A DNA stretch of 46,365 bases from Candidatus Woesearchaeota archaeon (lineage in GTDB: Archaea > Nanobdellota > Nanobdellia > Woesearchaeales > ARS49). The stretch spans positions 1 through 46,365 of the forward strand of contig JBFHWZ010000001.1 in assembly GCA_041599235.1 (NCBI GenBank). Direction: 5' to 3'. Positions 11,669-42,225 of this stretch are shown piece after piece. A program made the position numbers and the translations under genes. Each line of letters opens with the position of its first letter. The stretch's first letter is position 1. Below the pieces are notes generated by a model. That model did not search any database and was not told the DNA's origin. It saw nothing but the letters and a program-made list of their open reading frames with translations.

Positions 11669-12873
11669 AATGCTAAGGCTTCTTTAAGTGCTGAAAACAT
11701 CTTGGTGTTGAGTTCGGCGTTTTGCATGAGCTGTATCTCGCGCGTTCTCCCATATCTTCCTTTTGATATGACTTTTGCCTGAATAATGCCCAGCATGTCA
11801 AACTCAGCTATGATGTCTGAAATGCGCCGTTGCGTCAGGGGCCGCAGCGCTGTTTGCTTGCAGAGCTGTTGGTACACATCATACACTTCCCCTGTAAATA
11901 CGTGTTTTTGTTTGTTATTACACACGTGAAAAACGCCGTACAGTGTTAGCTGGTATTGTTTTGGTTGTGTCCTGATGATGTCAAGAACGCGGTCTTTTTC
12001 GATTTTGTGTTCTGCTGCGTCAAGATCAGCGATAGCAACAGTTTTGGTGCCTCCCCGTTCTGCAAGTTCTCCTGCAACGCGCAGCAGTTCCAGTGCTCTG
12101 CGGGCATCGCCGTGTTCGCGTGCTGCGTACGCTGCACATTTTTCAAGAAGGCCCTGTTCAAGTGCTTCAGGTTTGAATGCTTCTGCAGCGCGGTGCTCAA
12201 GTATGTTTTTGATTTGCGGCGCATTATAGGGTGGAAATACTAGTTCTTCTTCTGACATGCTGCTTTTGACGCGCGGATCAAGCTGTTCTGTGAAAAGCAA
12301 GTCGTTGCTTATACCGACAATGCTTATTTGCGCTTTCTGAAGCTCTGCATTGATTCTCGTGAGATTATATAGTAGCTCATCACCGACTTTACCAACAAGC
12401 TGGTCGATTTCGTCTAGAACCAGTAAAATAACTTGTTTGGTTGTGTCAACTGCTTTGTAAAAAATAGTGTATACTTCTTCTGTTGGCAGTCCTGTTGGTG
12501 GTATAGTTTTGTTAAATTCCCTGGCAAGCTGTGCTATGAGCCGGTATTCGGTATCTGCAACTTTTTTTAGCTTGCAGTTGACATAGACTATTTTCAGCGG
12601 CAGCTCGCGCTCTTCTGCCATTTTACGTAATTGCTCTGAGACGTATCGTGCCGTTAGTGTTTTACCTGTCCCTGTTTTTCCATAAATAAATACATTTGAT
12701 GGTTTTTCACCCCGCAAGCTTGGCGCAAAAATGCTGGCAAGCTGCTGCATTTGTTCATCACGGTGAAAAATAGTGGGGGGAAAGTAGTTTGCCTGTAAGC
12801 AGTTTTTGTTCTTAAAAAGAGAGTCTTTTGTTAAGAACTTTTCAAAAAAATTTGCCATCCCCTTTTCTTCCAT
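11665..12873 (-). CDS. cdc6: Orc1/Cdc6 replication initiator
   Basis: Walker A GKTGTGKT, Walker B LVLDEID, and a C-terminal winged helix. TATA-like TATTTAT 12897-12903 is centred 27 nt from ATG 12873. Confidence 0.93.
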   Translation of the reverse strand: MEEKGMANFFEKFLTKDSLFKNKNCLQANYFPPTIFHRDEQMQQLASIFAPSLRGEKPSNVFIYGKTGTGKTLTARYVSEQLRKMAEERELPLKIVYVNCKLKKVADTEYRLIAQLAREFNKTIPPTGLPTEEVYTIFYKAVDTTKQVILLVLDEIDQLVGKVGDELLYNLTRINAELQKAQISIVGISNDLLFTEQLDPRVKSSMSEEELVFPPYNAPQIKNILEHRAAEAFKPEALEQGLLEKCAAYAAREHGDARRALELLRVAGELAERGGTKTVAIADLDAAEHKIEKDRVLDIIRTQPKQYQLTLYGVFHVCNNKQKHVFTGEVYDVYQQLCKQTALRPLTQRRISDIIAEFDMLGIIQAKVISKGRYGRTREIQLMQNAELNTKMFSALKEALAL

Positions 12874-12878
12874 TGGAG

Positions 12879-12890
12879 TTCCAAGTGAAA
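12879..12890 (+). repeat. ORB-like element 1, TTCCAAGTGAAA
   Basis: TTCCA-N3-GAAA core located between the cdc6 TATA and the cdc6 start codon. Confidence 0.55.
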
Positions 12891-12935
12891 GGGAGGTATT
12901 TATGTTTTATTGTGCTGGTGTGAGTGTGTCCTTGA

Positions 12936-12947
12936 TTTCGTTTGGAA
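12936..12947 (-). repeat. ORB-like element 2, TTCCAAACGAAA on the minus strand
   Basis: Plus strand reads TTTCGTTTGGAA. It is inverted relative to elements 1 and 3 and sits at the left border of the AT-rich tract. Confidence 0.55.
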
Positions 12948-12954
12948 GTGGTAT

Positions 12955-13120
12955 TATTATTATGTTTAATGATTCTTAATTATAATTAATTATATATATC
13001 AATATATATAAATTTCTATATGGAAATAAATTAAAAAGATAAAGAAAAAAGAGTTTTTAACATATTTTTAAATATATATATCACAAAACAACTTTTAAAG
13101 TGTTTTTTTGATTTTTGAGC
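12955..13120. other. AT-rich duplex-unwinding-element candidate of a chromosomal replication origin (oriC)
   Basis: Long runs of A/T only (TATTATTATTATG..TTATAATTAATTATATATATCAATATATATAAATTT..). Non-coding, flanked by ORB-like elements, and directly upstream of cdc6-polB-polC. Confidence 0.65.
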
Positions 13121-13140
13121 GCCAAAACGAAAAAATACGG

Positions 13141-13152
13141 TTCCACACGAAA
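13141..13152 (+). repeat. ORB-like element 3, TTCCACACGAAA
   Basis: Same TTCCA-N3-GAAA core on the right side of the AT-rich tract. A weaker CCAAAACGAAA lies at 13122-13132, and TTTCTATATGGAAA at 13013-13026. Confidence 0.5.
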
Positions 13153-13294
13153 TAAAGCAGTCAGGGAAAATAAATTGGTGTTTTTTGCTACTCTTGAATA
13201 GTTAAAAGAGAAACCTTTATATATCAGTTATACCTACACGATAGTAACACCCGTAAGCTAATGTAGTCATAGATATAGTGGAGGAAATACAAGG

Positions 13295-14092
13295 ATGATC
13301 GTTGAAACTGAATTTTTAAACAAAATTAAAGATTTTGGCCTCAACAGCTACGAAGCAAAACTATGGACTGCTTTGCTCTCACGGGGTATAGCAACAGCCG
13401 GCGAGTTGTCTGATATTTCAAATGTTCCACGAAGCAGAAGTTATGATGTTCTAGAAAGCCTTGAGCGCAAGGGATTTATCATTATGAAGCTGGGCAAGCC
13501 CATTAAATATATTGCTGTTCCTCCAGAAGAAGTGCTTGACCGGGTTAAAAAAAGCATTATGGACAGTGCACAGAAGCACGCGCAAACACTTGAGGGCATA
13601 AAGAAAAGCGAAGTGCTCTCAGAACTTAACCTTCTCCACAAACAAGGTCTTGATTTAGTTGAGCCAAGCGACCTTACGGGTGCAATTAAAGGCCGCACTA
13701 ACCTCTATAATCATCTTGCGGCTGCGATTAAAAACGCTGAAAAGTCAGTCAGCATATTGACTACAGAAAAAGGAGCTGCACGAAAACTCGAAGCACTTAA
13801 AACAGCTTTGCAAAAAGCAAAGGACAAAGGCGTAAAAGTGCGCATTGCAGCACCATTCGGCAAAGCATCACCTGCAGCCAAAGAACTTGGACGGTATGCA
13901 CAAGTAAAAAGTGTTGGTGGTATCGACGCTCGATTCTGCGTTGTTGACAAAAAAACAGTTACCTTTATGGCATTGGAAGACAATGCAGCACACCCTAACT
14001 ATGACTTTGGCGTGTGGGTTAACACAAAATTCTTAGCAACCTCATTTGAGAACCTCTTTGACAGGGTGTGGGGCTCAAAGCAGCCGAAATAA
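13295..14092 (+). CDS. TrmB-family transcriptional regulator, paralogue 1
   Basis: N-terminal wHTH YEAKLWTALLSRGIATAGELSDISNVPRSRSYDVLESLERKGFI. TATA 13216-13225 and SD GTGGAGG 13278-13284. Confidence 0.8.
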   Translation: MIVETEFLNKIKDFGLNSYEAKLWTALLSRGIATAGELSDISNVPRSRSYDVLESLERKGFIIMKLGKPIKYIAVPPEEVLDRVKKSIMDSAQKHAQTLEGIKKSEVLSELNLLHKQGLDLVEPSDLTGAIKGRTNLYNHLAAAIKNAEKSVSILTTEKGAARKLEALKTALQKAKDKGVKVRIAAPFGKASPAAKELGRYAQVKSVGGIDARFCVVDKKTVTFMALEDNAAHPNYDFGVWVNTKFLATSFENLFDRVWGSKQPK

Positions 14093-14142
14093 AAACATTT
14101 TTAAAGCATTGTTATTTTAATAGGTAAAAAGAGAGGTGTGAT

Positions 14143-14340
14143 ATGGTTGAAGATGCTGTTTTACGAATAACTTTAGCAGTGGTCATAGGAACTCTTGCGG
14201 CTATTGTGTACAGCTTGCGCGTGCTTGTTTTGATGGAGCGCAGGGTTGCGCGCATTGAAGACCATATCGATACCATAGCACACAAAATTCTCCGCGAAGA
14301 GCTTAAGATTGAACGAGCGTTACTGAAGAAAAAACGGTAG
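14143..14340 (+). CDS. Small membrane protein (one TM helix plus charged coiled-coil-like tail)
   Basis: 65 aa, ITLAVVIGTLAAIVYSLRVLVL then RRVARIEDHIDTIAHKILREELKIERALLKKKR. Strong SD GAGGTG lies 6 nt upstream. The next gene starts 1 nt after its stop. Confidence 0.5.
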   Translation: MVEDAVLRITLAVVIGTLAAIVYSLRVLVLMERRVARIEDHIDTIAHKILREELKIERALLKKKR

Positions 14341-14341
14341 G

Positions 14342-15067
14342 ATGGACACGCAGCTGCTTTCTGTTTGTAAGTCATGGAATGAACTGGTTCACCGAGAGGC
14401 ATTTTCTCGTTCCCGCTTGATTACTACTATTGAAAAGTTCAACACAGAGCTTCTCAGGCAGTTTCCTGTTCCGCACTACGTTAACGCAGTGCAATTCTGT
14501 TTTTCAGAGCAGCCAGGCAGCATACGGGTGCTGCGAAGTAACTTTCTTAGAAAAATACACATACTTGCTCAAACAGTTAAAAACTCAAAACAAGAGCAAA
14601 CAGAAGCAGCCAGCAGCACCATCCCGCAAGGCGCACACGTTTTTGTCCTTGATGACACAAGCACGGCTCACGTGCTGGCAGATGCGCAGCAAAACAAAAA
14701 AGCAACACTACATTCTATTTCCAAGCTCAAGATAAAAACGCGCGTACACGATCCCAAAAAGCTTCGTCAAGTACTCAAAGCGTGCGACATGGTGATTTTG
14801 GGCGCTGCAGCAGTCACGCACGACAAAGTCGTCGATGTTGCAGGCGCTGAGCTTGTTGCGCACACAGCACACGCTTTGCACGTGCCTGTTTATGTGGTTG
14901 CGTCGGTGCTCAGTATTGACACACAAAACAAGTTTCTCAGAAGTCTGCAAGAAGGAACGGACTATGAGCTTGTTGAGCCGTCTTTAATAACAGGCATTAT
15001 TTCAGAAGCAGGGGTGTATGATCACCACACCTTTTTAGAATACGCACAGGCAGTGCTCAGACCTTAA
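14342..15067 (+). CDS. eIF-2B alpha/beta/delta family protein (short form)
   Basis: C-terminal family core MVILGAAAVTHDKVVDVAGAELVAHTAHALHVPVYVVASVLSID...ITGIISEAGVY. Confidence 0.6.
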   Translation: MDTQLLSVCKSWNELVHREAFSRSRLITTIEKFNTELLRQFPVPHYVNAVQFCFSEQPGSIRVLRSNFLRKIHILAQTVKNSKQEQTEAASSTIPQGAHVFVLDDTSTAHVLADAQQNKKATLHSISKLKIKTRVHDPKKLRQVLKACDMVILGAAAVTHDKVVDVAGAELVAHTAHALHVPVYVVASVLSIDTQNKFLRSLQEGTDYELVEPSLITGIISEAGVYDHHTFLEYAQAVLRP

Positions 15068-15560
15068 GCGCTTTTTTAAGTTTGGTTATGTCTTTGGTGA
15101 GTTGTGCAATTTTTTTGGTGTTATCTTCGTGCTCAAGCAGCTCACCGCACTCAGGGCACTTATACTCGAATTCTGTTGCTTGGTCAAAGTCAAGTCGAAT
15201 GCATCCCTGTGAACAAACATAGAACCGGCCAACCTCTTCTCGCGCAAGCCGTTCTTGCAGCCGTTCAAGTTTTTTCTTTTTCAGTCCGGTCATCAGGTCC
15301 TTAACGCGCTTTTGATTAAACGTCCAGTAGTAGATATACCAGCCCTTTTTCTTGTCTTTTTTGCGAATAAAAGAAACCAGGTTGGCATCGTACAGCCGAT
15401 AAAGCATGTTGCGCGTGAGATTTATTTCTGTCCTGATCTTTGAAGCAAGCTTGAATTCACTTACATTCTTCTGATTTTTCAGCGCTTTCACTAACGGAAG
15501 TACATCTTCTCCAGCAACCTCGCTGACTACTTCATCTACTAGCTTTCCTGACACTTTCAT
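15057..15560 (-). CDS. tfe: Transcription factor E (TFE alpha)
   Basis: Winged helix with KKGWYIYYWTFN and zinc ribbon CSQGCIRLDF..YKCPECGELL. Start set at the first ATG (15560). A GTG at 15584 would be leaderless relative to TATA at about 15610-15618, so the start is uncertain by 8 codons. Confidence 0.85.
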   Translation of the reverse strand: MKVSGKLVDEVVSEVAGEDVLPLVKALKNQKNVSEFKLASKIRTEINLTRNMLYRLYDANLVSFIRKKDKKKGWYIYYWTFNQKRVKDLMTGLKKKKLERLQERLAREEVGRFYVCSQGCIRLDFDQATEFEYKCPECGELLEHEDNTKKIAQLTKDITKLKKALKV

Positions 15561-15629
15561 AGCCTTCACTCGTACAGTCTTCACTCCTAAAAAGCAGTGC
15601 AAGAGACTTTATATACTGGTATTTTGCAT

Positions 15630-16025
15630 TTATAAAACTTTCGCCCCTGCGATGTCGTAAAAGCGTTTTCCGCGCTCAAGCGCCGCTGTTTTCTTAATAC
15701 CAACGCGCTTGGCAGTTTTCTCAAGTTGGTGCGGTGCAAGAAACAGCCACTCTGTTCGATCGAACTTGATGGCAACCAAAGGGGTATGGCCTGCTTTTGC
15801 TGCAAATTCCTGCAGCTGAGCAATTTCCTCGACGTCAAAGTACTGATATGCTGTTTTGCAGGCTTTGCACTCTATGGCAAGGGTTTTGCTGTTTTTGCTT
15901 ACCAGAAGATCAGGGCTTGGATATTGCATTGAGCCGCTACCAGCAACTCTGACAGCAGTCCAGCCATGTGCCCAAAAGAGGTGCACCAGATCGCGCTCAG
16001 CATTTGACCCTTTGACTTTACTCAT
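15630..16025 (-). CDS. hjc: Holliday junction resolvase Hjc
   Basis: GSNAERDLVHLFWAHGWTAVRVAGSG..PDLLVSKNSKTLAIECK, a PD-(D/E)xK archaeal resolvase pattern. Confidence 0.9.
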   Translation of the reverse strand: MSKVKGSNAERDLVHLFWAHGWTAVRVAGSGSMQYPSPDLLVSKNSKTLAIECKACKTAYQYFDVEEIAQLQEFAAKAGHTPLVAIKFDRTEWLFLAPHQLEKTAKRVGIKKTAALERGKRFYDIAGAKVL

Positions 16026-26754: not shown

Positions 26755-27723
26755 ATGACAAGCACGATTATCTGGACTGAGAAGTATCGTCCTAAAGATT
26801 TTGCTGAAATCAAGGGGCAGCAAGAGATTGTCAAGCGCATCAAGGCATTGGTTGCGCAAAAGAACATCCCTCATGTGCTGTTTGCAGGACCTCCCGGAGT
26901 GGGCAAGAGCACACTGGCCTTGGTTATGGCGCGCCAGCTGTTTGGTGAGGACTGGCGGGCAAATTTTCTTGAACTGAACGCTTCTGATGAGCGCGGCATT
27001 GATGTGGTGCGCAACAAGGTTAAGGATTTTGCACGAACAAAAGCCATTGGCGATGTGCCGTTTAAGCTGATTTTTTTGGATGAATGCGATGCGCTCACCA
27101 AAGAAGCGCAACAGGCCCTGCGCAGAACCATGGAGAATTATACCAATACCTGTAGATTTATTCTTGCAGCCAACTACAGCAGCAAAATCCTTGACCCTAT
27201 TCAGTCACGCTGTGCATTATTCAGGTTTAAGCTGCTTGAGACGAAAGATATGCATGCTTTGATTGATACTATTGCCAAGCAGGAAGGCTTGACCGTTGAT
27301 GACGCAGCAAAAGCCGCGCTGGTGCAAGTGAGTGAAGGTGATTGCAGGCGCTTTGAAAACTTATTGCAAAGCTGTGCAGCTGTTGACAAGAAGATCACTG
27401 ATAAATTGGTCTTTTCCATAGCAAGCGTAGCGCAACCGCAGGACATTAAGCAAGTGGTAGAGCTTGCACTGGCAGGTGATTTTATTCGTGCGCGTGAAAA
27501 ACTCTTGTCAGTCATGCTTGAGTATGGACTTTCAGGCATTGATGTGGTGAAGCAATTGCAAAAAGAAATCTGGACTGTTGAGCTTGCCAAACGTGATAAA
27601 GTGGCTGCAATTGACAAGTGCGGTGAAATTGAGTTTCGGTTAGTAGAAGGCAGTGATGAGTTTGTGCAGCTTGAGGCATTACTGGCACATCTTACGACGC
27701 TTGGCCAGAGCTCTTCACAATAA
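26755..27723 (+). CDS. rfcS: Replication factor C small subunit
   Basis: WTEKYRPK, GPPGVGKST, FLDECD, SRC, all contiguous (no intein). Start moved to ATG 26755 because the TATA at about 26714-26725 lies before it and after the track's TTG start. Confidence 0.93.
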   Translation: MTSTIIWTEKYRPKDFAEIKGQQEIVKRIKALVAQKNIPHVLFAGPPGVGKSTLALVMARQLFGEDWRANFLELNASDERGIDVVRNKVKDFARTKAIGDVPFKLIFLDECDALTKEAQQALRRTMENYTNTCRFILAANYSSKILDPIQSRCALFRFKLLETKDMHALIDTIAKQEGLTVDDAAKAALVQVSEGDCRRFENLLQSCAAVDKKITDKLVFSIASVAQPQDIKQVVELALAGDFIRAREKLLSVMLEYGLSGIDVVKQLQKEIWTVELAKRDKVAAIDKCGEIEFRLVEGSDEFVQLEALLAHLTTLGQSSSQ

Positions 27724-28627
27724 GTTCTGTTTGAACAAATTCTTCGTAATCATACAAGGTTTCTATGCTGACAATTTGCTCAAAGTCTGTTGCAGTGGTT
27801 ACGGGCTGTGTGCAGGTTACTTTCTTGGAACCACCAAAGATGGTTGCGAAACCTTCAGCTCCTGTTGCCGTACTGGCAAGGCCCGTGCAGGTCAGCCCAG
27901 GCAGGTTGGTATTGACTTTGACCCAGACCCTGTTTTCTTTTTGCCGCGTTGTTCTATCGCAGATGCTGTTGAACTCAAAGACGCTGCCGGTGCCTGCATT
28001 GACTAAGTCAAAGCTAAAGCCGACTTTGTCTCGTGCTCTGGTTGCTTCCTGGAAGTTCTGTATCTGAATAGGGCCGCCTGAGTTGTACAATGGCTTTGCG
28101 CCAGTTACCTCGCAAATGCCTCCTTCTCGGGGATTAAGCAGGTTTCTTCTGATGCATATTTTGCTGACTGCATTAGTGCCGTAATTATAGCAGTATTCTG
28201 CGCGTACCGGGAAGCGTGCTGTTGCACCTGCAATGGATGGCAGGTAATTTAAGCCAAGGAATTCAACAAACACTGGCGGGCTCGGCAGTACTTCGCCAGT
28301 TGCCAGTTTTTGATTTGCCAGTAAGTTGTCAGGTGCTCCTGCAATAAGCTCTGCTTCTGTTTTGGCAAATTCTGCAGGATTGATGCCTGAAAGCTTGATT
28401 CTGATGTTGGTGCTCGGCACTTCATACTCTCCTTTGTTGGCTGCCTGTACAACCACATCAAAAGGATCAACGCCACTATCAAACACTTCAGAGCGCAGCT
28501 CAACAAAGCTTGCTACCACGCCTTGAGTGCCGCCTAAGTAAGGACTTTCAATATCAACTGTTTTTTCTTGGGTTTTACAGCCTACTAAGAGAACAAACAA
28601 TGCGATTAATAATAGGAGCTTCCTCAT
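27692..28627 (-). CDS. Lipobox surface protein, paralogue A (two CARDB/Ig-like-looking halves, six conserved Cys)
   Basis: MRKLLLLIALFVLLVGC lipobox. Motifs shared with B and C: GTQGVVASF, AANKGEYEV, YCYNYGTNAVSKICI, GGPIQIQN, DLVNAGTGSVF, final LYDYEEF. Own TATA on the minus strand at 28656-28664. Confidence 0.75.
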   Translation of the reverse strand: MRKLLLLIALFVLLVGCKTQEKTVDIESPYLGGTQGVVASFVELRSEVFDSGVDPFDVVVQAANKGEYEVPSTNIRIKLSGINPAEFAKTEAELIAGAPDNLLANQKLATGEVLPSPPVFVEFLGLNYLPSIAGATARFPVRAEYCYNYGTNAVSKICIRRNLLNPREGGICEVTGAKPLYNSGGPIQIQNFQEATRARDKVGFSFDLVNAGTGSVFEFNSICDRTTRQKENRVWVKVNTNLPGLTCTGLASTATGAEGFATIFGGSKKVTCTQPVTTATDFEQIVSIETLYDYEEFVQTELIVKSSGQAS

Positions 28628-28655
28628 TTTTTTAGTTTGATTACGCCTGTGTGGT

Positions 28656-28664
28656 TATTTAAAT
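28656..28664 (-). promoter_or_regulatory. BRE/TATA (minus strand AAAGATTTAAATA) for lipoprotein A
   Basis: Centre is about 33 nt upstream of ATG 28627, implying a leader of about 6 nt. It lies in the 43-nt gap after the stop of paralogue B. Confidence 0.55.
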
Positions 28665-28670
28665 CTTTCG

Positions 28671-29624
28671 TTAATAAATAGGGAGTATTTCAAGCTCTTT
28701 GAAGATGGTATTTCGATAGCCATAGCTTAAGATAACCGTAATGGGGGTGGTGTATGCATCTTCACCAAAGGTCATGAACTCGCAGAAGATGCTACCGCGG
28801 CCATTGGTTAAGCGCATGTGGCCATCGTCAAGGGGCTTGCACGTTGGCCTGATTGAGGTGCCACTTATAATAACGTCCTCTACCATAACATAATCAACTT
28901 CATCAAAGCCCAACGGTGTTGTAAAGGGGCTGCACTTATCCAAATAGTCAGCACCAAACCTAAAGACATCGCCGCTACCTACATTATGTACGCTGATTTT
29001 GAATCGTGTTCTGCGCGGGCTGGGCTCTACTTCAATATCAGAAACTGCTATGGGTGCGCCTTGGGTTCCTAAGCTCACTGCAGTCGGATAGCATACTTTT
29101 TGTTTAGTGGTTGCAGATAGTGGCTGTGGGTCAATGCAGATGGTTTCTGAAGCTATTGTTTTATAGCCATAGCAGGCTGTTGCGAGAATGCGTACTGGGA
29201 AGCGGTCAATGTTTTTTGCCCGCAAACTGCGTATGACGCCTTCAAATGATGCGCGGTCAAGTGCACCTTGAGGAACAAACTGGCTTCTGCCTTCTAAGAA
29301 CGGCAATGAATAGCCGCTGGTTCGTATGTTGGCAATAATGCTTGGATCAAATCCTGATATATAGATACGGTCGCCAGGGCCGCCAACATCATAGGTGCCT
29401 TTATTTTCCACATCAACAACTGCAAGGAACTTTTCATTGTCAAACAAGCGTTGTGGCGGCAGGTTGGGCACAAAGCTCATGCGCAATCCTTCGCTGCCAG
29501 TGCGAAATTCTGGATAGAAGTTTTCTTTGCTTGGCGCTTGGCCCCCTGGCTGGCAGCCAGCTAAGAGCAGTACTGCAAGTATGAGCATCACCTTTTTGTT
29601 CGTAAGCAGTTCTTTTTTGTTCAT
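28671..29624 (-). CDS. Lipobox surface protein, paralogue B
   Basis: MNKKELLTNKKVMLILAVLLLAGC lipobox. Shared motifs: GSEGLRMSF, VENKGTYDV, ACYGYKTIASETICI, QGAPIAVSD, SVHNVGSGDVF, LSYGYRN. Confidence 0.75.
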   Translation of the reverse strand: MNKKELLTNKKVMLILAVLLLAGCQPGGQAPSKENFYPEFRTGSEGLRMSFVPNLPPQRLFDNEKFLAVVDVENKGTYDVGGPGDRIYISGFDPSIIANIRTSGYSLPFLEGRSQFVPQGALDRASFEGVIRSLRAKNIDRFPVRILATACYGYKTIASETICIDPQPLSATTKQKVCYPTAVSLGTQGAPIAVSDIEVEPSPRRTRFKISVHNVGSGDVFRFGADYLDKCSPFTTPLGFDEVDYVMVEDVIISGTSIRPTCKPLDDGHMRLTNGRGSIFCEFMTFGEDAYTTPITVILSYGYRNTIFKELEILPIY

Positions 29625-29651
29625 TTTTTAAATACGTCAGAAATTCCACGG

Positions 29652-29660
29652 TTATAAATA
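29652..29660 (-). promoter_or_regulatory. TATA box (minus strand TATTTATAA) for lipoprotein B, bracketed by a 9-nt inverted repeat
   Basis: Centre is about 32 nt from ATG 29624, implying a leader of about 5 nt. CAGAAATTC (29638-29646) and GAATTTCTG (29670-29678) flank it. Confidence 0.5.
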
Positions 29661-29685
29661 TCTAGCGGTGAATTTCTGAGCGTGC

Positions 29686-29707
29686 TCAAAAACCCTGCGG
29701 TTTTTGA
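29686..29707 (-). terminator. Hairpin with T5 run directly after the stop of lipoprotein C
   Basis: TCAAAAACC-CTGC-GGTTTTTGA forms a perfect 9-bp stem with a 4-nt loop, 8 nt downstream of stop 29715-29717 on the minus strand. Confidence 0.4.
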
Positions 29708-29714
29708 CATTTTT

Positions 29715-30635
29715 CTAGCGCGCTGGTTTTTGAATAGTATAACTGGTTATAACATTATCAACATACCCATAGTCCATGGTGATGGTCAAGGGCGCAAGGT
29801 AGGTTCCGTATGATTGGTGAATGCCTGTAGGAAGCCTGCAGGCCACTTTGTTTTCTCCTTGGCGCAAGCGCAGGGTTTCAGGAGTGCATTGCAGATAGTC
29901 ATCGCTTAAGCGCGCTCGCACACGTACTTGGTTAAGATTTTGCAAGGGCCTGCCTGAGCACGCGTCTAAGAGCTGTCCGGTGCTGACTACTTGGCCCCTG
30001 CCGCGGTTTTCAATGTGTAGCACAAATTCAGGAGTGATGGTATCAGGGTTAGCATGCGGTAACATGCGCGGTTCAATGTTGGTTACTGCAAGTGGCGCTC
30101 CTTGGCCGCCAGCAAGACTTTGCGCTGTTGGCGCGCAGGTCTTTTGCGGAACATCACCGGTTAAATCTGTATCAACGCAAGTGGTGAGTGTTGCAGTGGT
30201 CTTGTATGGGTAACAGGCTGTGAACTGCAGGGTGGTGCTGTAGCGTTCAGTTAAAGGATCCAGTTTGCCGTTGATTATTCTGAATCCTATGCGTTCTTCA
30301 GTTCCTTGCGGATAAAAAACACTTTTACCTTGCACTGAAAAGCTGCCTGCATCAGAATCAAGCACTGTTGCATACTGGCGTTCAGTGGAAAGTTTGTAAT
30401 ATCCGCCTTGGACATCGCTTGAGCCCTTGTTGTGCAGTATCAGTGTTGCCTGCGAATAGGTTTCTTCGTACACTTCAGGGGGAGGAGCACCTTGCATGAA
30501 CTCCATGACAATGCCTTCAGTGCCATAATTGATTTCAGGCACGTCTATTGTTTCTTTTTCCTCTGGTGGTGCCATTTGCAAAGCACCACAGCCAGCAAGG
30601 AACAAGACTATGATAAGCACGAGCATTTTTTTCAT
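29715..30635 (-). CDS. Lipobox surface protein, paralogue C
   Basis: MKKMLVLIIVLFLAGC lipobox. Shared motifs: GTEGIVMEF, LHNKGSSDV, ACYPYKTTATLTTCV, QGAPLAVTN, HIENRGRGQV, MDYGYVDN. ATGA overlap with the upstream gene. Confidence 0.75.
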   Translation of the reverse strand: MKKMLVLIIVLFLAGCGALQMAPPEEKETIDVPEINYGTEGIVMEFMQGAPPPEVYEETYSQATLILHNKGSSDVQGGYYKLSTERQYATVLDSDAGSFSVQGKSVFYPQGTEERIGFRIINGKLDPLTERYSTTLQFTACYPYKTTATLTTCVDTDLTGDVPQKTCAPTAQSLAGGQGAPLAVTNIEPRMLPHANPDTITPEFVLHIENRGRGQVVSTGQLLDACSGRPLQNLNQVRVRARLSDDYLQCTPETLRLRQGENKVACRLPTGIHQSYGTYLAPLTITMDYGYVDNVITSYTIQKPAR

Positions 30636-32098
30636 GGTTGCTGTTCCACCCTAAAGCCAGTTTGTGTTTCATAGAGGTATTTGTAGTTGGCACTGACTTT
30701 GAAATTGTTGATTGCCAAGGGTGATTCTCCGAGCAAGTCTTGGGTGCTTTCTATCTCAGTATGAGCTCTAAAGCTATAGATGCTCACGTTCTTGAGCTTG
30801 GCAAGGTCTGCTGCAGGAAGCTGATAGACATTAACTAAAGCAGGATCACACACTGCTTGCTCGTCAGTATCTAATGAACTGCAGTCAACAGCTTGCACAT
30901 CAATGCCGTTGATGTCAGTGACTTTCAGCCCTTTAGGAACGTAAAATATGAGCTTGGTTATTTCTTTTATTTTGCCTGTCCAGGCATTGGTGACTGAAGC
31001 GCCAATAGTTGGCCCTTTTTCTCCTTGTGCAATGCCAATTGGCTGTGAGCCAAAGCCCATGCCAATAGCTACAGGTCCTGAAGTGTAAATCGTAGTGGGT
31101 TGTTTGTCTGGAATGCCTTCTAGTGGGTCAACTTGCCGCCTGCGGTAATCACGCAAGCGTTCTTTGTCCATAAAGTAGGCTTTATGATATGCTCGAGTGC
31201 CAAAGTCAAAGTCTGCGCTGAGCTTTCCTGTGTAATAGCCTTCTGGCAAGTTATCGAAGACGCAGTCAATGTCTGTTTCTTCAAACGTCTCCACCCTAAA
31301 CGTTTTTGTTGGGATGATTGCATTTGCAGGGGTGTTGTCTGCTTTGCATTCTATGTTGATGGTTATGGGCTTGTCTAAGGTTTCTGCTTTGAGGTTTGCA
31401 AAGAGCGTGACTGGCTCATTGACAAAGAACCTGCTTGCTGCAGGCCGCAGATTTTGCAGGAACACTCCTAGGCGTTTAGTGGCTGCTTGATCAACTGTGC
31501 CAGTGTAGTAATCACCTTTAGCTATCGCTATTTCTTCTTCAACTGTTTTCCAGAACTGTGCTCTGAAGCCTATGAGTCCTTGCCACATATTTACCGTAGC
31601 TTGGTTGACTGCGTGCAGGAAATATCTGAGCACCATACCCGGACTGAGCATGGGCACATCAGGAATATCATAATACTGATTTGCATAGTCCATGATAGGC
31701 TCACCAAATGAGAAAATCATAAGGCCAAACCAAAACAATAGGAAAAATAAGCCAAACAAGCGCACTTTATTTTTGCCGATTAAGTACCAGACCCATATGG
31801 GGTTGACCATGAAAAACATGATGCTTGTTGCAGTGGTGAACTTCGCAACAAACCCTAAGAGCGGCAAAGCAAGTATGGAAATGAGGGTAACAAAGAATAG
31901 TTCTTTTCTGCTTTCTTTGATAATGCCGCTTGCAAGCCAGGCAACAAATACATATCCGAAAATCGCAACGGACCAGCCAGCAATTGTTATGGGTCTGCCA
32001 GGATGGCGAAGAAAACTGTCAAGGATGTGAACAAGAATAGCAAAAATTAAAACTAAGTATCCTTTCGGCTCTCTATCAACAGGGGTTCTATCAGCCAT
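30632..32098 (-). CDS. Polytopic membrane protein (about 5 N-terminal TM helices) with ~350-aa ectodomain
   Basis: Hydrophobic segments lie between residues ~14 and ~130. The ectodomain has 4 Cys and motifs loosely echoing the lipoproteins (FDFGTRAYHKAY, SGPVAIGMG, VTNAWTGKI, ANYKYLYE). It starts 1 nt after the stop of the upstream gene. Confidence 0.7.
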   Translation of the reverse strand: MADRTPVDREPKGYLVLIFAILVHILDSFLRHPGRPITIAGWSVAIFGYVFVAWLASGIIKESRKELFFVTLISILALPLLGFVAKFTTATSIMFFMVNPIWVWYLIGKNKVRLFGLFFLLFWFGLMIFSFGEPIMDYANQYYDIPDVPMLSPGMVLRYFLHAVNQATVNMWQGLIGFRAQFWKTVEEEIAIAKGDYYTGTVDQAATKRLGVFLQNLRPAASRFFVNEPVTLFANLKAETLDKPITINIECKADNTPANAIIPTKTFRVETFEETDIDCVFDNLPEGYYTGKLSADFDFGTRAYHKAYFMDKERLRDYRRRQVDPLEGIPDKQPTTIYTSGPVAIGMGFGSQPIGIAQGEKGPTIGASVTNAWTGKIKEITKLIFYVPKGLKVTDINGIDVQAVDCSSLDTDEQAVCDPALVNVYQLPAADLAKLKNVSIYSFRAHTEIESTQDLLGESPLAINNFKVSANYKYLYETQTGFRVEQQP

Positions 32099-32099
32099 T

Positions 32100-33248
32100 T
32101 CATTCTACGCGTACTTCTACTTTGACAATGTTAAGTGCTGTCAAAGGAAGAATTTCAATAAAGTTATTGCCTTCAACTATAACAGGGGTGATGTCTCGGG
32201 TAAAGCGCGGTTCTCTTTGGTCAATCACATCTAATCTGCCATTAATATTTGTTTGCGCACCTTTCAATCTGCGGTCATCAACAAACTGAATATCAAGCAC
32301 AATGCTTGCAGCACCTTGCTGCACTGCATCCCACAAGCGTGGTTCAACATTGAAATAATCAATAAAGCCTTTGCTTGGCTTGAGGAAGGTCTTTAAGCGC
32401 AACTGCTCAACACCAAAGCTGCCTCTGCTTGCTCTGATGGTCAGAACATTTTTGCCCAGCTTGAGGTCTTCTTTGAAAATATCTTGCCTGTTCAGGCTTT
32501 CACAGGCAGGAACGCCTGAGAAGATGATTTCATCATTGAGGGTGATTTCCATAGCGCCAACAGTTGCTTGGCTGCAGAGCGGATAAAAGTCTAGGAATGC
32601 GCTTTCAAAATTATTGTATTCTTCTTCTGAAATAGGTATGGTTTCAAGAGCGCGTTGCTTGCGCACATCAGTTACATCACCAATGACTTTGATATCTCTG
32701 AATTCATAAGTCTTGGTTGGTATGCCAAAGCCTTGGACCTCGAATTTGAGCGTGTTTTGTTGGCGCAAGTATTCTGGTCTGATTGATACGGGCGCTGGAT
32801 TTTGAACAGTGATGCTTCCTTCAAAGATTTGGAATCCGTTGATGCTGATAACCAGGGTGCCTTTGTGCACTGGTGTTTGGAAGCTGAGCATGACATTTCC
32901 TGTGTTTGCAGGGTCTGCTACGGGAAAGGTGATTTCTTTGAATGCGTCGCCATAGAGGCCTTTTGAAATAGTGAAGGGGCTGAGCGTGGTGAGTATCTGT
33001 GCTTCGCGCCCTTCTTGTAGGTATATGTTAGGCAGGTAATGGTCGCGTTCGCGTGCTCCAACAAATTCAAGGCTGCCAACTGGTGCGAGCAAAAGCACAT
33101 TGCTGCCTGGTGCTCCTGGCGGTAGTTCTGTTATTTCTTCATCTGCTAGCAGCGCTTCGCGCTCTGCTGGTGGTAAGAAGAGGATGTAAAAGATAAAGAG
33201 AAGGGTGATGATGCCAATGAGTGCTCCTACTTGCGCCTTCTTGTTCAT
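32100..33248 (-). CDS. Bitopic (signal-anchor) surface protein with three-fold internal beta-rich repeat
   Basis: MNKKAQVGALIGIITLLFIFYILF anchor. Repeats: ISINGFQIFEG..QNTLKFEV, ITLNDEIIFSG..GKNVLTIRA, TNINGRLDVI..GNNFIEILP. Start moved from 33317 to ATG 33248 because the minus-strand TATA 33292-33299 and SD GGTGA 33254-33258 lie inside the longer ORF. Confidence 0.7.
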   Translation of the reverse strand: MNKKAQVGALIGIITLLFIFYILFLPPAEREALLADEEITELPPGAPGSNVLLLAPVGSLEFVGARERDHYLPNIYLQEGREAQILTTLSPFTISKGLYGDAFKEITFPVADPANTGNVMLSFQTPVHKGTLVISINGFQIFEGSITVQNPAPVSIRPEYLRQQNTLKFEVQGFGIPTKTYEFRDIKVIGDVTDVRKQRALETIPISEEEYNNFESAFLDFYPLCSQATVGAMEITLNDEIIFSGVPACESLNRQDIFKEDLKLGKNVLTIRASRGSFGVEQLRLKTFLKPSKGFIDYFNVEPRLWDAVQQGAASIVLDIQFVDDRRLKGAQTNINGRLDVIDQREPRFTRDITPVIVEGNNFIEILPLTALNIVKVEVRVE

Positions 33249-33291
33249 ATATGTCACCAGTTTTTGTTTTTCTGTATTCCTTTGTTTTCTG

Positions 33292-33299
33292 TATATAAA
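33292..33299 (-). promoter_or_regulatory. TATA (minus strand CACAAAAGTTTATATA) for the 32100-33248 operon
   Basis: About 47 nt upstream of ATG 33248, with SD GGTGA in the leader. Confidence 0.55.
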
Positions 33300-33380: not shown

Positions 33381-33776
33381 ATGAAGATACAACAGCTATT
33401 ACTTGGACTGATTCTAGCAGTGCTGCTCAGCGCGCCAGTATTTGCAAGCCACACCTATGGTTATAATTATCCAACGTATGGCGGGCACAGCTATGATTAT
33501 TCATATTCTCGCAATTACGATTACACAAGCGTAAGCGAAAACGAGTACCAGCATAGCAGGTCCTACGGCGGACCATACTATCATGCCAATGGCTACAGCT
33601 ATGATTATGGCAGAAGCAGGTCATTTACGTTTGGTTCCTATTCTGAAACAGAGCATGCCTCAGGCAACAGCTATGGCGGCTATGGTGGCAGATCATATGG
33701 CCGATATCACTATCCATACAGCAGCTATGGCAGTCCTTATTACCGTAACAGCAATTACAGATATTACAGCTACTGA
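33381..33776 (+). CDS. Secreted low-complexity Tyr/Gly/Ser/Asn/Arg-rich protein
   Basis: Signal peptide MKIQQLLLGLILAVLLSAPVFA|SH. By my count the mature ~108 aa contain 30 Tyr and no Lys, Leu, Ile, Met, Trp or Cys. There is a strong promoter and SD. Confidence 0.7.
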   Translation: MKIQQLLLGLILAVLLSAPVFASHTYGYNYPTYGGHSYDYSYSRNYDYTSVSENEYQHSRSYGGPYYHANGYSYDYGRSRSFTFGSYSETEHASGNSYGGYGGRSYGRYHYPYSSYGSPYYRNSNYRYYSY

Positions 33777-33778
33777 TC

Positions 33779-34435
33779 ATGAAACAGCAACTACTTATTG
33801 GCGCACTGGTAGTGCTCTTGGTGCTTCCTGCAGCAAGCGCTAAGGTTTTCTATTATTCTGATGAGGTTGATTATCAGGATAACCTGGCGTATGCGCACTT
33901 GAATCACTATGATGGCATTGATGCTGATGACTTTGTTGATTTTGATGATTATACTTGCGTGAGCTTAGATGACCAGCGCGCAATTGCCAATGCCAATCAG
34001 TATGACCATGTTGATCCGTGGACTGCAGCTACTATCAGCAGGCAAGACTTGAAAAAATTGTCACAGGCAGACCGCAATAGGATAGCTGATGAAAATCCTT
34101 ATGATGCTATTGACCGCGATGATGTTGACAGCTTTGATGATTTTTCATGTTCAACGTTGCGGGATTACAACGACTACGCACGAACCAATGCGTATGACCG
34201 ATATGATGAAGCTGACTTTACCCGCTTAGATCACATTGAGATTGCGCAAGAGGTTGGCAAAGACCGATACCACTTTTTTGAGCTGAGCGATTTTGATAGA
34301 TTTAACCTGAACCAGATCAGGTATAGGCCTGTTGCAAAATATCTGTATCCTGGCTATACCTATGGATGGAACGGCTATTATTATAACCAGTATGGCAGCA
34401 GAAATGCCTATCCGGTGTATGGTGCAGTTTACTAA
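33779..34435 (+). CDS. Secreted Asp-rich protein with duplicated YD-ID-DD..FDD-x-x-C module and Tyr-rich C-terminal tail
   Basis: Signal peptide MKQQLLIGALVVLLVLPAASA|K. Units YDGIDADDFVDFDDYTCVSLDD..NQYD and YDAIDRDDVDSFDDFSCSTLRD..NAYD lie 64 aa apart. Tail is YLYPGYTYGWNGYYYNQYGSRNAYPVYGAVY. The gene starts 2 nt after the preceding stop. Confidence 0.7.
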   Translation: MKQQLLIGALVVLLVLPAASAKVFYYSDEVDYQDNLAYAHLNHYDGIDADDFVDFDDYTCVSLDDQRAIANANQYDHVDPWTAATISRQDLKKLSQADRNRIADENPYDAIDRDDVDSFDDFSCSTLRDYNDYARTNAYDRYDEADFTRLDHIEIAQEVGKDRYHFFELSDFDRFNLNQIRYRPVAKYLYPGYTYGWNGYYYNQYGSRNAYPVYGAVY

Positions 34436-40445: not shown

Positions 40446-41285
40446 ATGGTGTGGATTGTGCGCTATAGCGAAGTAGGCTTAAAAGGCAAGAATCGGGGGC
40501 GGTTTGAGCAGCAATTAGAGCGCACTATGCAGGCCTGCTTAAAGCAAAACAGCATTGCTGTTGAGAAGATTGAGCGGCCCTATGGCAGAGTTCTGGTATA
40601 TGCTGAAGGTGATTGTTCAGTCTTGAAGCGTGTTTTTGGCATTGCCAGCTTTAGTGAAGCTATTGTTGCAGGATCTGCAATGGATGAGGTAAAGAAAAAA
40701 GCACTGGAGTATTTTGCAATAAGCAAAGAACAAAAATTCAGAGTAAGCTGCCAGCGCCTTGATAAACAGTATCCCTTGAAAAGCATGGAATTTGAAAAAG
40801 AGCTTGGAACGTTTGTTCAGGAACAAACAGGCGCTGGTGTGAGCATGACTGCATTTGATGTTAATATCATGGCTGAGATTATTCAAGGCACAGTATACTT
40901 CTTTAAAGAAAAAAGCAAAGGGCTTGGCGGTTTGCCTGTTGGCATTGAAGGGACTGTGCTTGGCTTGGTGGAAGATGAAACCTCGCTCTTAGCCTGCTTG
41001 CTTATGATGAAGCGCGGCTGCAAAGTGGTGCCTGTTGCGTTGCATGCTGTTGATATCAGCTTATTGCAGAAGTTTGCTTATGGCTACCAACTGGAGTTAT
41101 TGCGTGCAGCAAAAATCGAAGAGCTTGATGCACTGGCAGCTCAGCATAATGCCAAAGCAGTTATTGTTAATGATCTCTTAGATACTATTCGTGAGGTACC
41201 TTTAAAAACTCAGGTGCTTAGACCATTATCTGGTTTTGAAAAAAAGGAAATCGAGGAACAACTCAATGCCTATAAAGCTCTGTGA
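40446..41285 (+). CDS. ThiI-like THUMP-domain protein with degenerate PP-loop
   Basis: N-terminal VRYSEVGLKGKNRGRFE (ThiI ferredoxin-like/THUMP region). GLGGLPVGIEGTVLGLVEDETSLLACLLMMKRGCKV sits where ThiI normally has LLSGGIDSPVA. C-terminal RPLSGFEKKEIEE. At 279 aa it is shorter than typical ThiI. Confidence 0.65.
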   Translation: MVWIVRYSEVGLKGKNRGRFEQQLERTMQACLKQNSIAVEKIERPYGRVLVYAEGDCSVLKRVFGIASFSEAIVAGSAMDEVKKKALEYFAISKEQKFRVSCQRLDKQYPLKSMEFEKELGTFVQEQTGAGVSMTAFDVNIMAEIIQGTVYFFKEKSKGLGGLPVGIEGTVLGLVEDETSLLACLLMMKRGCKVVPVALHAVDISLLQKFAYGYQLELLRAAKIEELDALAAQHNAKAVIVNDLLDTIREVPLKTQVLRPLSGFEKKEIEEQLNAYKAL

Positions 41286-42225
41286 GCAAAACAAGCAAGC
41301 ACCGTATCAGCCAACAGCAGAGGATATGCAATGGGCTGAGCAGTTTGAGCAGCAGATAGGGGAAACTATACAGCAGCATGCCTTAATTGAGCCAGATGAT
41401 AACGTATTTGTTGCAGTAAGCGGTGGCAAAGACAGCACAGCATTATTGTATGTGCTCAAAAAGCTTGGCTATGCAGTGCAGGCAATAACAGTAGATGCAC
41501 ATATTGGGTGTTATACTGAAACTAATCTGAAAAATATTCGTGCTGTGTGCAAAGACCTTGCTGTTAAGCTCTATGAGGTTCCTTTCAGGAAAGTGTTTGG
41601 TGCAAGCTTGTGTCATATTCGTGATACTTTGCAGCAAAAAGGCCACAACTACAAGTCCTGTACGGTCTGCGGAGTATTGCGAAGATACTTGTTGAACAGG
41701 TTTAGCCGTGAGCTCGGGGCAACCAAGCTTGTCTTAGGGCATAACCTGGATGATGAAGCACAGGCAATTCTGATGAACCTTATCAAGAACAAGCAGGAAC
41801 TGAATGTTCGCCTGGGGCCCTTGCCGGGCATTATCAGAAACAAAGGCTTTGTGCCGCGCATCAAGCCCTTGTACTTTACTGAAGAAAAAGATATTGTGCG
41901 GTATTCTAAAATCAGGAACTTTCCTGTGTATTATGGCAAGTGCCCGTGCAGTCTTGATGGCTTTAGAAATTACGTAAAAGACTTTCTGAATGCGCATCAA
42001 AAGATCAATCCTGCTGTCAAGAGAAATATTGTCATGAATTTCCTGCAAAAGCTTCCTGCATTGCAGGCAAAATACGCAACAACAGCGCATCCACAAATGT
42101 GCAATTCGTGCGGTGAGCCAGCAAAAGCGCAGCGCTGCAGAACCTGCACCTTACTTGACCAGTTTCAGTCGGGCAAGCTCAGTTTTGGTGAGAAAACGCC
42201 ACTCTCCACTATTGAGTCCTGCTAG
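41266..42225 (+). CDS. PP-loop ATPase of the TtuA/NcsA/TtcA tRNA-thiolation family
   Basis: VAVSGGKDSTALL (PP-loop), CTVCG, GHNLDDEAQ, GKCPC, and a C-terminal zinc knuckle CNSCGEPAKAQRCRTC. First ATG has SD GAGGA 8 nt upstream and overlaps the previous gene by 20 nt. The alternative start ATG 41326 cannot be excluded. Confidence 0.7.
   Translation: MPIKLCEQNKQAPYQPTAEDMQWAEQFEQQIGETIQQHALIEPDDNVFVAVSGGKDSTALLYVLKKLGYAVQAITVDAHIGCYTETNLKNIRAVCKDLAVKLYEVPFRKVFGASLCHIRDTLQQKGHNYKSCTVCGVLRRYLLNRFSRELGATKLVLGHNLDDEAQAILMNLIKNKQELNVRLGPLPGIIRNKGFVPRIKPLYFTEEKDIVRYSKIRNFPVYYGKCPCSLDGFRNYVKDFLNAHQKINPAVKRNIVMNFLQKLPALQAKYATTAHPQMCNSCGEPAKAQRCRTCTLLDQFQSGKLSFGEKTPLSTIESC

Follow-up and report, generated by a model that had tools for sequence, protein, structure and literature searches.

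Within a 46,365-nucleotide stretch of a Candidatus Woesearchaeota genome (GenBank assembly GCA_041599235.1, contig JBFHWZ010000001.1, positions 1 to 46,365; hereafter "the window"), three genes arranged head-to-tail on the minus strand, A, B and C, code for lipobox-containing proteins and form the 3′ part of a five-gene set in the order D-E-C-B-A. An initial annotation of this DNA had treated the trio as the unit and had missed D and E, two further genes for membrane proteins that lie upstream of it. Taking the five genes together, we favour, with about even confidence, a reading in which A, B and C are ancient, non-redundant, lipid-anchored and disulfide-stabilised surface proteins, and in which the D-E-C-B-A set builds a heteromeric, membrane-tethered complex or scaffold of the cell envelope. 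The coordinates of all five genes and of the signals associated with them are collected in Table 1.

That A, B and C are true paralogues, as had been proposed from an alignment by eye, is borne out by significant similarity at the level of both sequences and profiles, and their open reading frames (ORFs) had been correctly placed and measured. In BLASTP comparisons, B and C match one another over their full length (E 2e-35, 31% identity), A and B match at 9e-13 and A and C at 2e-4, while hhalign comparisons of profiles built from the orthologues of each protein give E-values of 7.5e-65 for B-C, 1.6e-35 for A-B and 1.4e-28 for A-C. A MAFFT alignment of the three contains 40 invariant columns. 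Residues of B that are invariant include C151, C163, C178, C231, C262, C281, N74-x-G76, N214..G218 and Y301/Y303. The motifs first read from the three proteins, L(V/A)GC, G(T/S)(Q/E)Gxxx(S/E)F, NKGxx(D/E)V, CYxYxTxAxxxxC(I/V), NxGxG and a terminal Y(D/G)Y, are all present; only the "GAP" motif has to be restated, since in A it reads S-G-G-P-I-Q-I, so that the pattern becomes (Q/S)-G-(A/G)-P.

The N-termini of A, B and C have the layout of an SPII-type lipoprotein signal, in which a basic n-region leads through a hydrophobic h-region to the lipobox. A relaxed form of this motif, [LVIMF][ASTVIGL][GAS]C, is found in 390 of 465 sequences, the exceptions being mostly truncated gene calls, and the column of the lipobox cysteine is invariant in the aligned sequences (61/61), in keeping with the initial annotation. 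Matches of the A/B/C family to the Pfam LPAM_1 model were weak and fell under the cutoff. The public gene call of B (P0001) is 269 aa long and starts at Met49, thereby omitting the signal peptide, the lipobox cysteine and the tether; because of this start, the lipoprotein nature of B is hidden by automated annotation. Orthologues of B are 305-318 aa long with the lipobox included.

Beyond the lipobox cysteine, each of the three proteins has the six ectodomain cysteines that had been noted from the sequence, and none besides. All seven columns are invariant in the 61-sequence alignment, and 438 of 463 family members retain the full set of seven cysteines, the remainder again being mostly calls truncated at the N-terminus. 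In addition, the number of conserved ectodomain cysteines is even in all five products of the set (six each in A, B and C, four in E and two in D). C151 is substituted in six sequences, each of which has lost C231 as well, and the C151-C231 coupling ranks 10th among all residue pairs in a mean-field direct coupling analysis (DCA) of 463 sequences. Because of this shared loss and this rank, the pair suggests itself as a staple between the two halves of the ectodomain, and is the best supported of three candidate pairs. The coupling of D165 with K176, which flank C163 and C178, ranks 5th and is consistent with a closed loop held by a C163-C178 bond, and a pairing of C262 with C281 follows only by elimination; C281 alone is lost in two sequences. 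Three disulfides in each of the A, B and C ectodomains are therefore plausible from this indirect evidence.

To follow the gene set across genomes, ORFs were called in 84 related loci and assigned with phmmer to one or other of the five window proteins. The order D-E-C-B-A was found in ~60 of the 84, from distinct species, with each positional gene best matching the window gene of the same position, and loci without the full order mostly lie at contig ends. With a hidden Markov model of the family, 67 loci yield three copies, 17 yield two and none yields four. Since one copy of each is kept across these loci, the triplication predates the radiation of these archaea, and the fixed single copies of A, B and C are the signature expected of non-redundant subunits. 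Thus, of the two arrangements that the initial annotation had put forward, a heteromeric or a differentially expressed surface array, the first is the most economical reading, given that each genome has a single copy of A, of B and of C in a constant order.

A search for the family in the genomes that serve as GTDB species representatives identified relatives in 169 of them, and the 80 genomes listed are nearly all labelled Woesearchaeota, Nanoarchaeia or Nanoarchaeota. An exhaustive profile search of 1.84 billion representative proteins returned 2913 metagenomic clusters (at 50% identity) at E≤1e-3, 1179 of them at E≤1e-30, and the homologues of B are "hypothetical proteins" of ~310 aa from Candidatus Woesearchaeota that carry no precomputed Pfam domain. 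We found no account of the family or operon in the searchable literature on Woesearchaeota/DPANN lipoproteins, surface layers (S-layers) and cysteine-rich surface proteins, and the family is not mentioned in a survey of archaeal type IV filaments (TFF). Many metagenome-assembled genomes from Third Party Annotation (TPA) records titled "uncultured Methanosarcinales archaeon" (loci L005, L007, L012, L016, L018 and others) have both the Woesearchaeota-type operon and the synteny around it. The same is true of single records named "Binatia bacterium" and "Aenigmatarchaeota"; all these organism names seem to be placeholders or to stem from mis-binning.

The spacing of the genes divides the set into a tight upstream part and a looser downstream one. 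Across loci, the median gaps are 3 nt for D-E and −4 nt for E-C (63 loci), as compared with 33 nt for C-B and 54 nt for B-A. In the window, D ends 1 nt before the start of E, and the ATG of C overlaps the stop codon of E (ATGA) by 4 nt, so that D, E and C look translationally coupled, and the C-B and B-A spacers measure 90 nt and 43 nt. The separate promoters that the initial annotation had assigned to the three paralogues are retained here for B and A, and not for C: a TATA-like motif lies at −45..−22 in 49 of 77 B upstream regions and 48 of 74 A upstream regions, many of the former sharing the string CCAAAAAGTATTTATAAGG, but in none of 65 upstream of C. The conserved boxes before B and A would act as internal promoters, and a short hairpin just beyond C is a possible partial terminator between C and B. 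Upstream of D, a putative promoter element and ribosome-binding site would serve the operon as a whole.

These elements bear on a very unlikely alternative, in which the three lipoproteins are independent, being either redundant or differentially expressed, and stand beside unrelated membrane-protein genes with which they form no complex. The promoter-like elements that B and A have to themselves, and the dispersal of the genes in a few genomes, fit such independence. Redundant paralogues would, however, be lost or amplified over time, whereas one of each is retained in the same order in ~60 species-level loci; furthermore, the genes abut closely or overlap at the D-E and E-C junctions, and the ectodomain of the lipoproteins seems to recur in E.

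Structural models were used to characterise this ectodomain. An AlphaFold2 model of B, run on the 61-sequence alignment (pLDDT 93, pTM 0.83), is all-beta except for the signal helix and one short helix, and consists of a tether of low pLDDT (~residues 23-45) followed by two all-beta halves, 47-164 and 192-314, each of which ends in a strand of 23-24 residues. Pairs that score highly in DCA place strand 142-164 antiparallel to the C-terminal strand 291-314 (R145-E310, K155-I298, E160-I295/V297) and pair strand 192-202 with 291-303. Because of these pairings between the halves, B is best described as one rigid, stitched body rather than as beads on a string. The initial annotation was thus right to expect two beta-sandwich-like, Ig-like halves, but these are not separate Ig beads, being stitched together by their long strands. 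The two halves were not shown to be homologous, since an hhalign comparison of half 1 (40-166) with half 2 (185-317) gave E 0.012 and a probability of 3.5% and aligned only the terminal x-Y-x-Y-x-T strands.

Foldseek searches of the PDB with the B model returned tandem Ig-like modules at E 1e-5 to 1e-3 and TM scores of 0.16-0.24, among them integrin alpha legs, complement macroglobulin (MG) domains, transglutaminase barrels, SspB/SpaP and WxLIP, while the top match in the viral library BFVD was a DUF11 protein (E 6.9e-5, TM 0.20); as far as the model allows, the resemblance is generically Ig-like only. Scans of all five proteins against Pfam and NCBIfam gave nothing above threshold, including no match to an S-layer domain, and alignment profiles of A/B/C, E and D searched against PDB sequences gave noise only. 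The kinship with CARDB or DUF11 adhesion domains that had been suggested from the N-x-G motifs does not hold up in sequence comparisons: no window protein matches these Pfam families at E≤1, and CARDB is hit in just 2 of 61 family members, with a best E of 0.13.

This fold also bears on the possibility, to which we give little credence, that the lipoproteins capture a nutrient such as host lipids or glycans in the beta-sandwich and pass it to E as to a permease. Many archaeal and bacterial lipoproteins do bind substrates, and the membrane domain of E has multiple helices. Many biosynthetic pathways are absent in Woesearchaeota (PMC11606122). However, B is modelled as all-beta, which is not the fold of periplasmic binding proteins, and no solute-binding protein appeared among its matches in Foldseek, PDB-sequence, Pfam or NCBIfam searches, a kind of match that the initial annotation had said would count against its reading. 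Furthermore, no gene for an ATPase or permease is found in the operon at any locus, and the membrane domain of E is not conserved, arguing against a transporter or enzyme. Readings of the set as a solute-binding or transport system were rejected on these grounds.

Of the two genes that had been missed, E provides the closest link to the trio. Its membrane helices (residues 12-143) are poorly conserved, with no column conserved in ≥70% of sequences except one Arg; because of this near absence of conserved columns, we take the region to be an anchor rather than an enzyme or transporter. A match of this membrane domain to VKOR (E ~4) was rejected, as the domain lacks both cysteines and conserved residues. 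The E ectodomain is all-beta, with four conserved cysteines, and contains GP, N-x-W-x-G and Y-x-Y in the same order as A, B and C. When its profile is compared with that of A/B/C by hhalign, the alignment is collinear and weak (E 7.5e-4, probability 25%), and places N-x-W-x-G over N-x-G-x-G and Y-x-Y over Y-G-Y. In an AlphaFold2 model of E (pLDDT 86, rising above 90 in the ectodomain), a stalk helix (153-194) leads into two beta halves that both close, like those of B, with a long strand, here of 25 residues, and the secondary-structure elements follow the same order as in B. The two models also have Foldseek neighbours in common (9qj4_B, integrin alpha, complement, transglutaminases and protein 4.2). 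The A/B/C family therefore probably has a fourth and divergent paralogue in the E ectodomain, which is joined to a polytopic anchor.

Orthologues of E vary in length from 488 to ~1220 aa, and some carry additional domains, either PKD or an SLT lytic-transglycosylase domain (E 5.5e-9, with a weaker second case in locus L082). Such additions are seen in only 2-3 of ~65 E orthologues, within the same D-E-C-B-A operon. That an archaeal surface complex should bear a domain that cleaves peptidoglycan hints that, in the lineages concerned, bacterial walls are contacted.

The first gene of the operon, D, starts at the ATG at 33248 and not at an upstream TTG, as indicated by the GGTGA that precedes this ATG, by conservation that begins there and by the public gene call (P0298, 382 aa). 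Its N-terminus is short and basic ([KR][KR][GA]Q) and is followed by a transmembrane helix that is, together with a juxtamembrane motif, strikingly conserved (LIGIITLLFIFYILFLPPxERxxLL). Two conserved cysteines lie in the ectodomain, where hhalign detects an internal repeat (E 3e-8) made up of two or more homologous beta modules, and comparison of the D profile with those of A, B and C revealed no relationship.

The D leader raises the question of a pilin-like or bindosome-like assembly, in which D would be a type IV pilin-like protein, processed by class III signal peptidase, that nucleates a pseudopilus or fibre carrying the lipoproteins. The +1 glutamine is conserved in the EppA-processed pilins of Methanococcus (PMC3875500), and D resembles those of Methanococcus maripaludis in its short basic leader ending in Gly/Ala, its +1 Gln and the hydrophobic helix that follows (PMC3875500); a [KR][GA]Q leader is present in 76 of 119 D orthologues, the others mostly having E, D or A at +1, and the helix itself is unusually conserved. 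Nevertheless, we see only a very slight chance that D works in this way. The putative cleavage site and the helix are, in most orthologues, 8-10 residues apart, and such a spacer of small or polar residues is atypical for pilins; D lacks a Glu at +5 and any match to DUF361 or to the class III signal in Pfam; it is much larger than these pilins, with its repeated beta modules; no gene for a pilus ATPase, platform protein or prepilin peptidase lies in or beside the operon; and a plain positive-inside signal anchor would explain the same residues.

We then compared evolutionary rates, by taking for each protein its median identity to the window orthologue in the same set of genomes. A (48%) and B (50%) are conserved about as well as PheRS-alpha (51%) and Pelota (55%); RFC stands at 68% and D at 44%, and C (34%) and E (31%) fall lower. 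On the basis of these alignments, A, B and D are under housekeeping-like constraint, and C and E are the variable parts of the set.

The uneven rates bear on the idea that the set is an adhesin platform through which an episymbiont contacts its host or partner, and perhaps breaches its envelope, with A, B and C as integrin-like Ig modules and E presenting effector domains. DPANN archaea are described as mostly ectosymbionts; the Foldseek neighbours are of adhesion type (integrin alpha legs, SspB/SpaP, Ace, ClfB and RbmA); C and E evolve fast; and the SLT and PKD domains of some E orthologues could serve as effectors. We nonetheless consider such a platform unlikely, since A, B and D are conserved like housekeeping proteins across diverse Woesearchaeota that presumably have different partners, adhesins as a rule diversify and differ in copy number, which here is fixed at three, the effector-like domains are confined to those few E orthologues, and the Foldseek matches are generic, with TM scores of ~0.2.

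Returning to the heteromeric envelope scaffold, its assembly might proceed as follows. Sec would insert or export all five products; an AliA-type pathway would lipidate A, B and C on the lipobox cysteine, their signal peptides would be removed, and each would then be held on a flexible tether of ~20 residues (the segment of low pLDDT in the model). Outside the cell, the six remaining cysteines would form three disulfides, of which C151-C231 is the best supported, and the rigid double-sandwich ectodomains would assemble with the paralogous ectodomain of E, which would itself be displayed on its polytopic anchor and a stalk helix of ~40 residues. D, anchored at its N-terminus, would join them to give one hetero-oligomer of fixed composition just above the membrane, and the candidate internal promoters before B and A would raise the dosage of these two products over that of D, E and C. 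Such a complex would most likely be a core scaffold or spacer of the envelope, for example an organiser or anchor of a membrane-proximal layer. Its core would consist of the slowly evolving A, B and D, and its outward side of the fast-evolving C and above all E, which could acquire lineage-specific domains such as PKD and lytic transglycosylase. A scaffold or spacer role is in line with how the module is conserved, with its unvarying stoichiometry and with its universal occurrence.

Several points weigh against this interpretation. B-A lies apart from D-E-C in a few genomes (loci L003/L047, L048, L066 and L069-L071), so that strict co-transcription is not obligatory; for the homology between E and A/B/C, the usual level of significance is not reached (hhalign probability 25%); and the flanking genes are conserved housekeeping genes (Pelota, TrmB, PheRS, RFC, PRC-barrel and TyrRS) that give no functional hint. 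Interaction, lipidation, disulfides and expression are predicted from sequence and models, and the scaffold role is one that we infer by arguing from conservation and architecture only. In addition, separately annotated "S-layer protein" genes are among the top transcripts in a Woesearchaeota metatranscriptome (PMC11606122); because such genes are annotated and expressed apart from it, this module is unlikely to be itself the S-layer. In the split operon of L003, a MoxR-like AAA_5 ATPase (472 aa) and three unannotated proteins (264, 549 and 238 aa) are encoded between B and A (11296-15887, minus strand).

A bolder proposal, which we regard as quite unlikely, casts the set as a hitherto unrecognised, lineage-defining surface machine of the Woesearchaeota. 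In this proposal the four paralogous ectodomains of E, C, B and A, with an interleaved, disulfide-stapled double sandwich that would be without close structural relatives, would form a pseudo-symmetric hetero-oligomer on a polytopic platform which, with a pilin-like D, would make up the conserved core of a cell-cell interface. Through it these archaea, whose genomes are reduced, would take up lipids or other metabolites from partners, and the variable PKD and lytic-transglycosylase domains, facing outward on E, would set partner specificity.

Woesearchaeota, which are tiny symbionts, are among the most widespread uncultured archaea. As the module is found in essentially every Woesearchaeota genome examined, in fixed order and copy number, is missing from Pfam and NCBIfam, and has two subunits conserved to the degree of translation and replication proteins, it is a strong candidate for a core component of their envelope and a useful marker of the lineage, as well as a concrete target for cryo-electron tomography, proteomics and heterologous expression. 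Lipoproteins and AliA (arCOG02177) are reported to be prevalent in DPANN archaea (PMC12462473), and A, B and C are well-conserved DPANN candidates for substrates of the recently discovered archaeal AliA/AliB lipoprotein pathway.

Table 1. Genes of the D-E-C-B-A set, candidate signals in and before it, and long orthologues of E (positions are those of the window, except for the long orthologues, which are given in their own loci).
Feature	Position	Strand	Description
Gene A	27692-28627	minus	311 aa, lipobox ...LLVGC17; last gene of operon
TATA-like box TTTAAATAA	28655-28663	minus	28-36 nt upstream of the ATG of A, within the B-A spacer; candidate internal promoter
Gene B	28671-29624	minus	317 aa, lipobox ...LLLAGC24; best-conserved paralogue
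TATA-like box ATATTTATAA	29652-29661	minus	28-37 nt upstream of the ATG of B, within the C-B spacer; candidate internal promoter
Short hairpin AAAACC/GGTTTT into T5 run	29688-29706	minus	just 3′ of the stop codon of C
Gene C	29715-30635	minus	306 aa, lipobox ...FLAGC16; fastest-evolving of A/B/C
Gene E	30632-32098	minus	488-aa polytopic membrane protein; ectodomain residues 211-485
Gene D	32100-33248	minus	382 aa; first gene of operon
Putative operon upstream signals	33254-33299	minus	TATA-like TTTATATA at 33292-33299 and GGTGA ribosome-binding site at 33254-33258, before the ATG of D
Long E orthologue, L085	6001-8544
Long E orthologue, L086	5863-8010
Long E orthologue, L082	2273-5881
Long E orthologue, L079	1148-4816

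Elsewhere in the window, which is archaeal in its gene content, lie genes for MCM, PolD DP1/DP2, Cdc6, TBP, TFE, RFC, Hjc, Fen1, Pelota and PheRS; the gene for the RFC small subunit is convergent with gene A, and the two share 32 nt at the 3′ end of A. Two plus-strand ORFs stand between D and Pelota: the first (33381-33776) codes for a protein of 131 aa in which a signal peptide precedes a low-complexity region extremely rich in Tyr, Gly and Ser (YGYNYPTYGGHSYDYSY...), and the second (33779-34435) for a protein of 218 aa with a sub-threshold NCBIfam match to the Rv0361 family of membrane proteins (E 1e-6). Because D and Pelota are adjacent, 70-165 nt apart, in the related loci L001 and L004, this pair is a lineage-specific insertion.

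An AT-rich intergenic region of 420 nt (12873-13295) beside cdc6/orc1, after which come the genes for PolD DP1 and DP2, has the lowest GC of the window (0.40) and contains two copies, 82 nt apart, of a 21-nt direct repeat (TATAATTAATTATATATATCA, 12980-13108), together with several AT palindromes; this region is likely to be a replication origin. On the plus strand, a 279-aa ORF (40446-41285) with the ferredoxin-like and THUMP domains of ThiI, and with only the first 35 positions of its PP-loop domain, overlaps by 50 nt an ORF (41236-42225) for a 329-aa PP-loop ATPase (ATP_bind_3/tRNA_Me_trans), and together they may represent a gene pair for tRNA thiolation that is split, frameshifted or arranged in an unusual way. 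Finally, a 361-aa ORF on the minus strand (3331-4416), with a sub-threshold match to the Cys-rich Dictyostelium CTDC repeat (E 4.6e-5), may encode a further Cys-rich secreted protein.

In comparison with characterised systems, the parts of the set are of known kinds, lipobox lipoproteins and Ig-like beta-sandwiches, while the family is unannotated and its interleaved double sandwich is without a close structural neighbour. A, B and C share with CARDB (PF07705) and DUF11 domains beta-sandwich strands bearing a V-x-N-x-G type motif, and differ from them in that their halves are joined by strands of 23-25 residues and by a probable inter-half disulfide, instead of being independent repeats. Among PDB structures, integrin alpha legs (thigh and calf), the MG domains of alpha2-macroglobulin and complement, and the C-terminal barrels of transglutaminases are the top Foldseek neighbours of both B and the E ectodomain, at E 1e-6 to 1e-4 and probabilities of up to 1.0. 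With TM scores of 0.13-0.24, an rmsd (root-mean-square deviation) above 20 Å and identities of 7-12%, and with neither domain order nor function shared, the similarity of the models to these modules is local and generic only.

As lipoproteins, A, B and C have the basic n-region, h-region, [LVI][AV][GA]C lipobox and invariant cysteine of known archaeal examples (exported by Sec or Tat in Haloferax volcanii and involving AliA/AliB; PMC12462473). The characterised haloarchaeal lipoproteins are mostly solute-binding proteins, to which the mature domains of A, B and C are unrelated, and lipidation of the latter is predicted. The proposed complex may also be set beside the archaeal S-layer, which it resembles in consisting of lipid-tethered, extracellular Ig-like modules that are universal and abundant within a lineage. 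Archaeal S-layer glycoproteins, such as the product of Haloferax volcanii csg, have Ig-like domains and are lipid-anchored to the membrane. S-layers are, however, usually built from one or two large, fast-evolving proteins, whereas here there are five small ones, of which two are conserved like housekeeping proteins.

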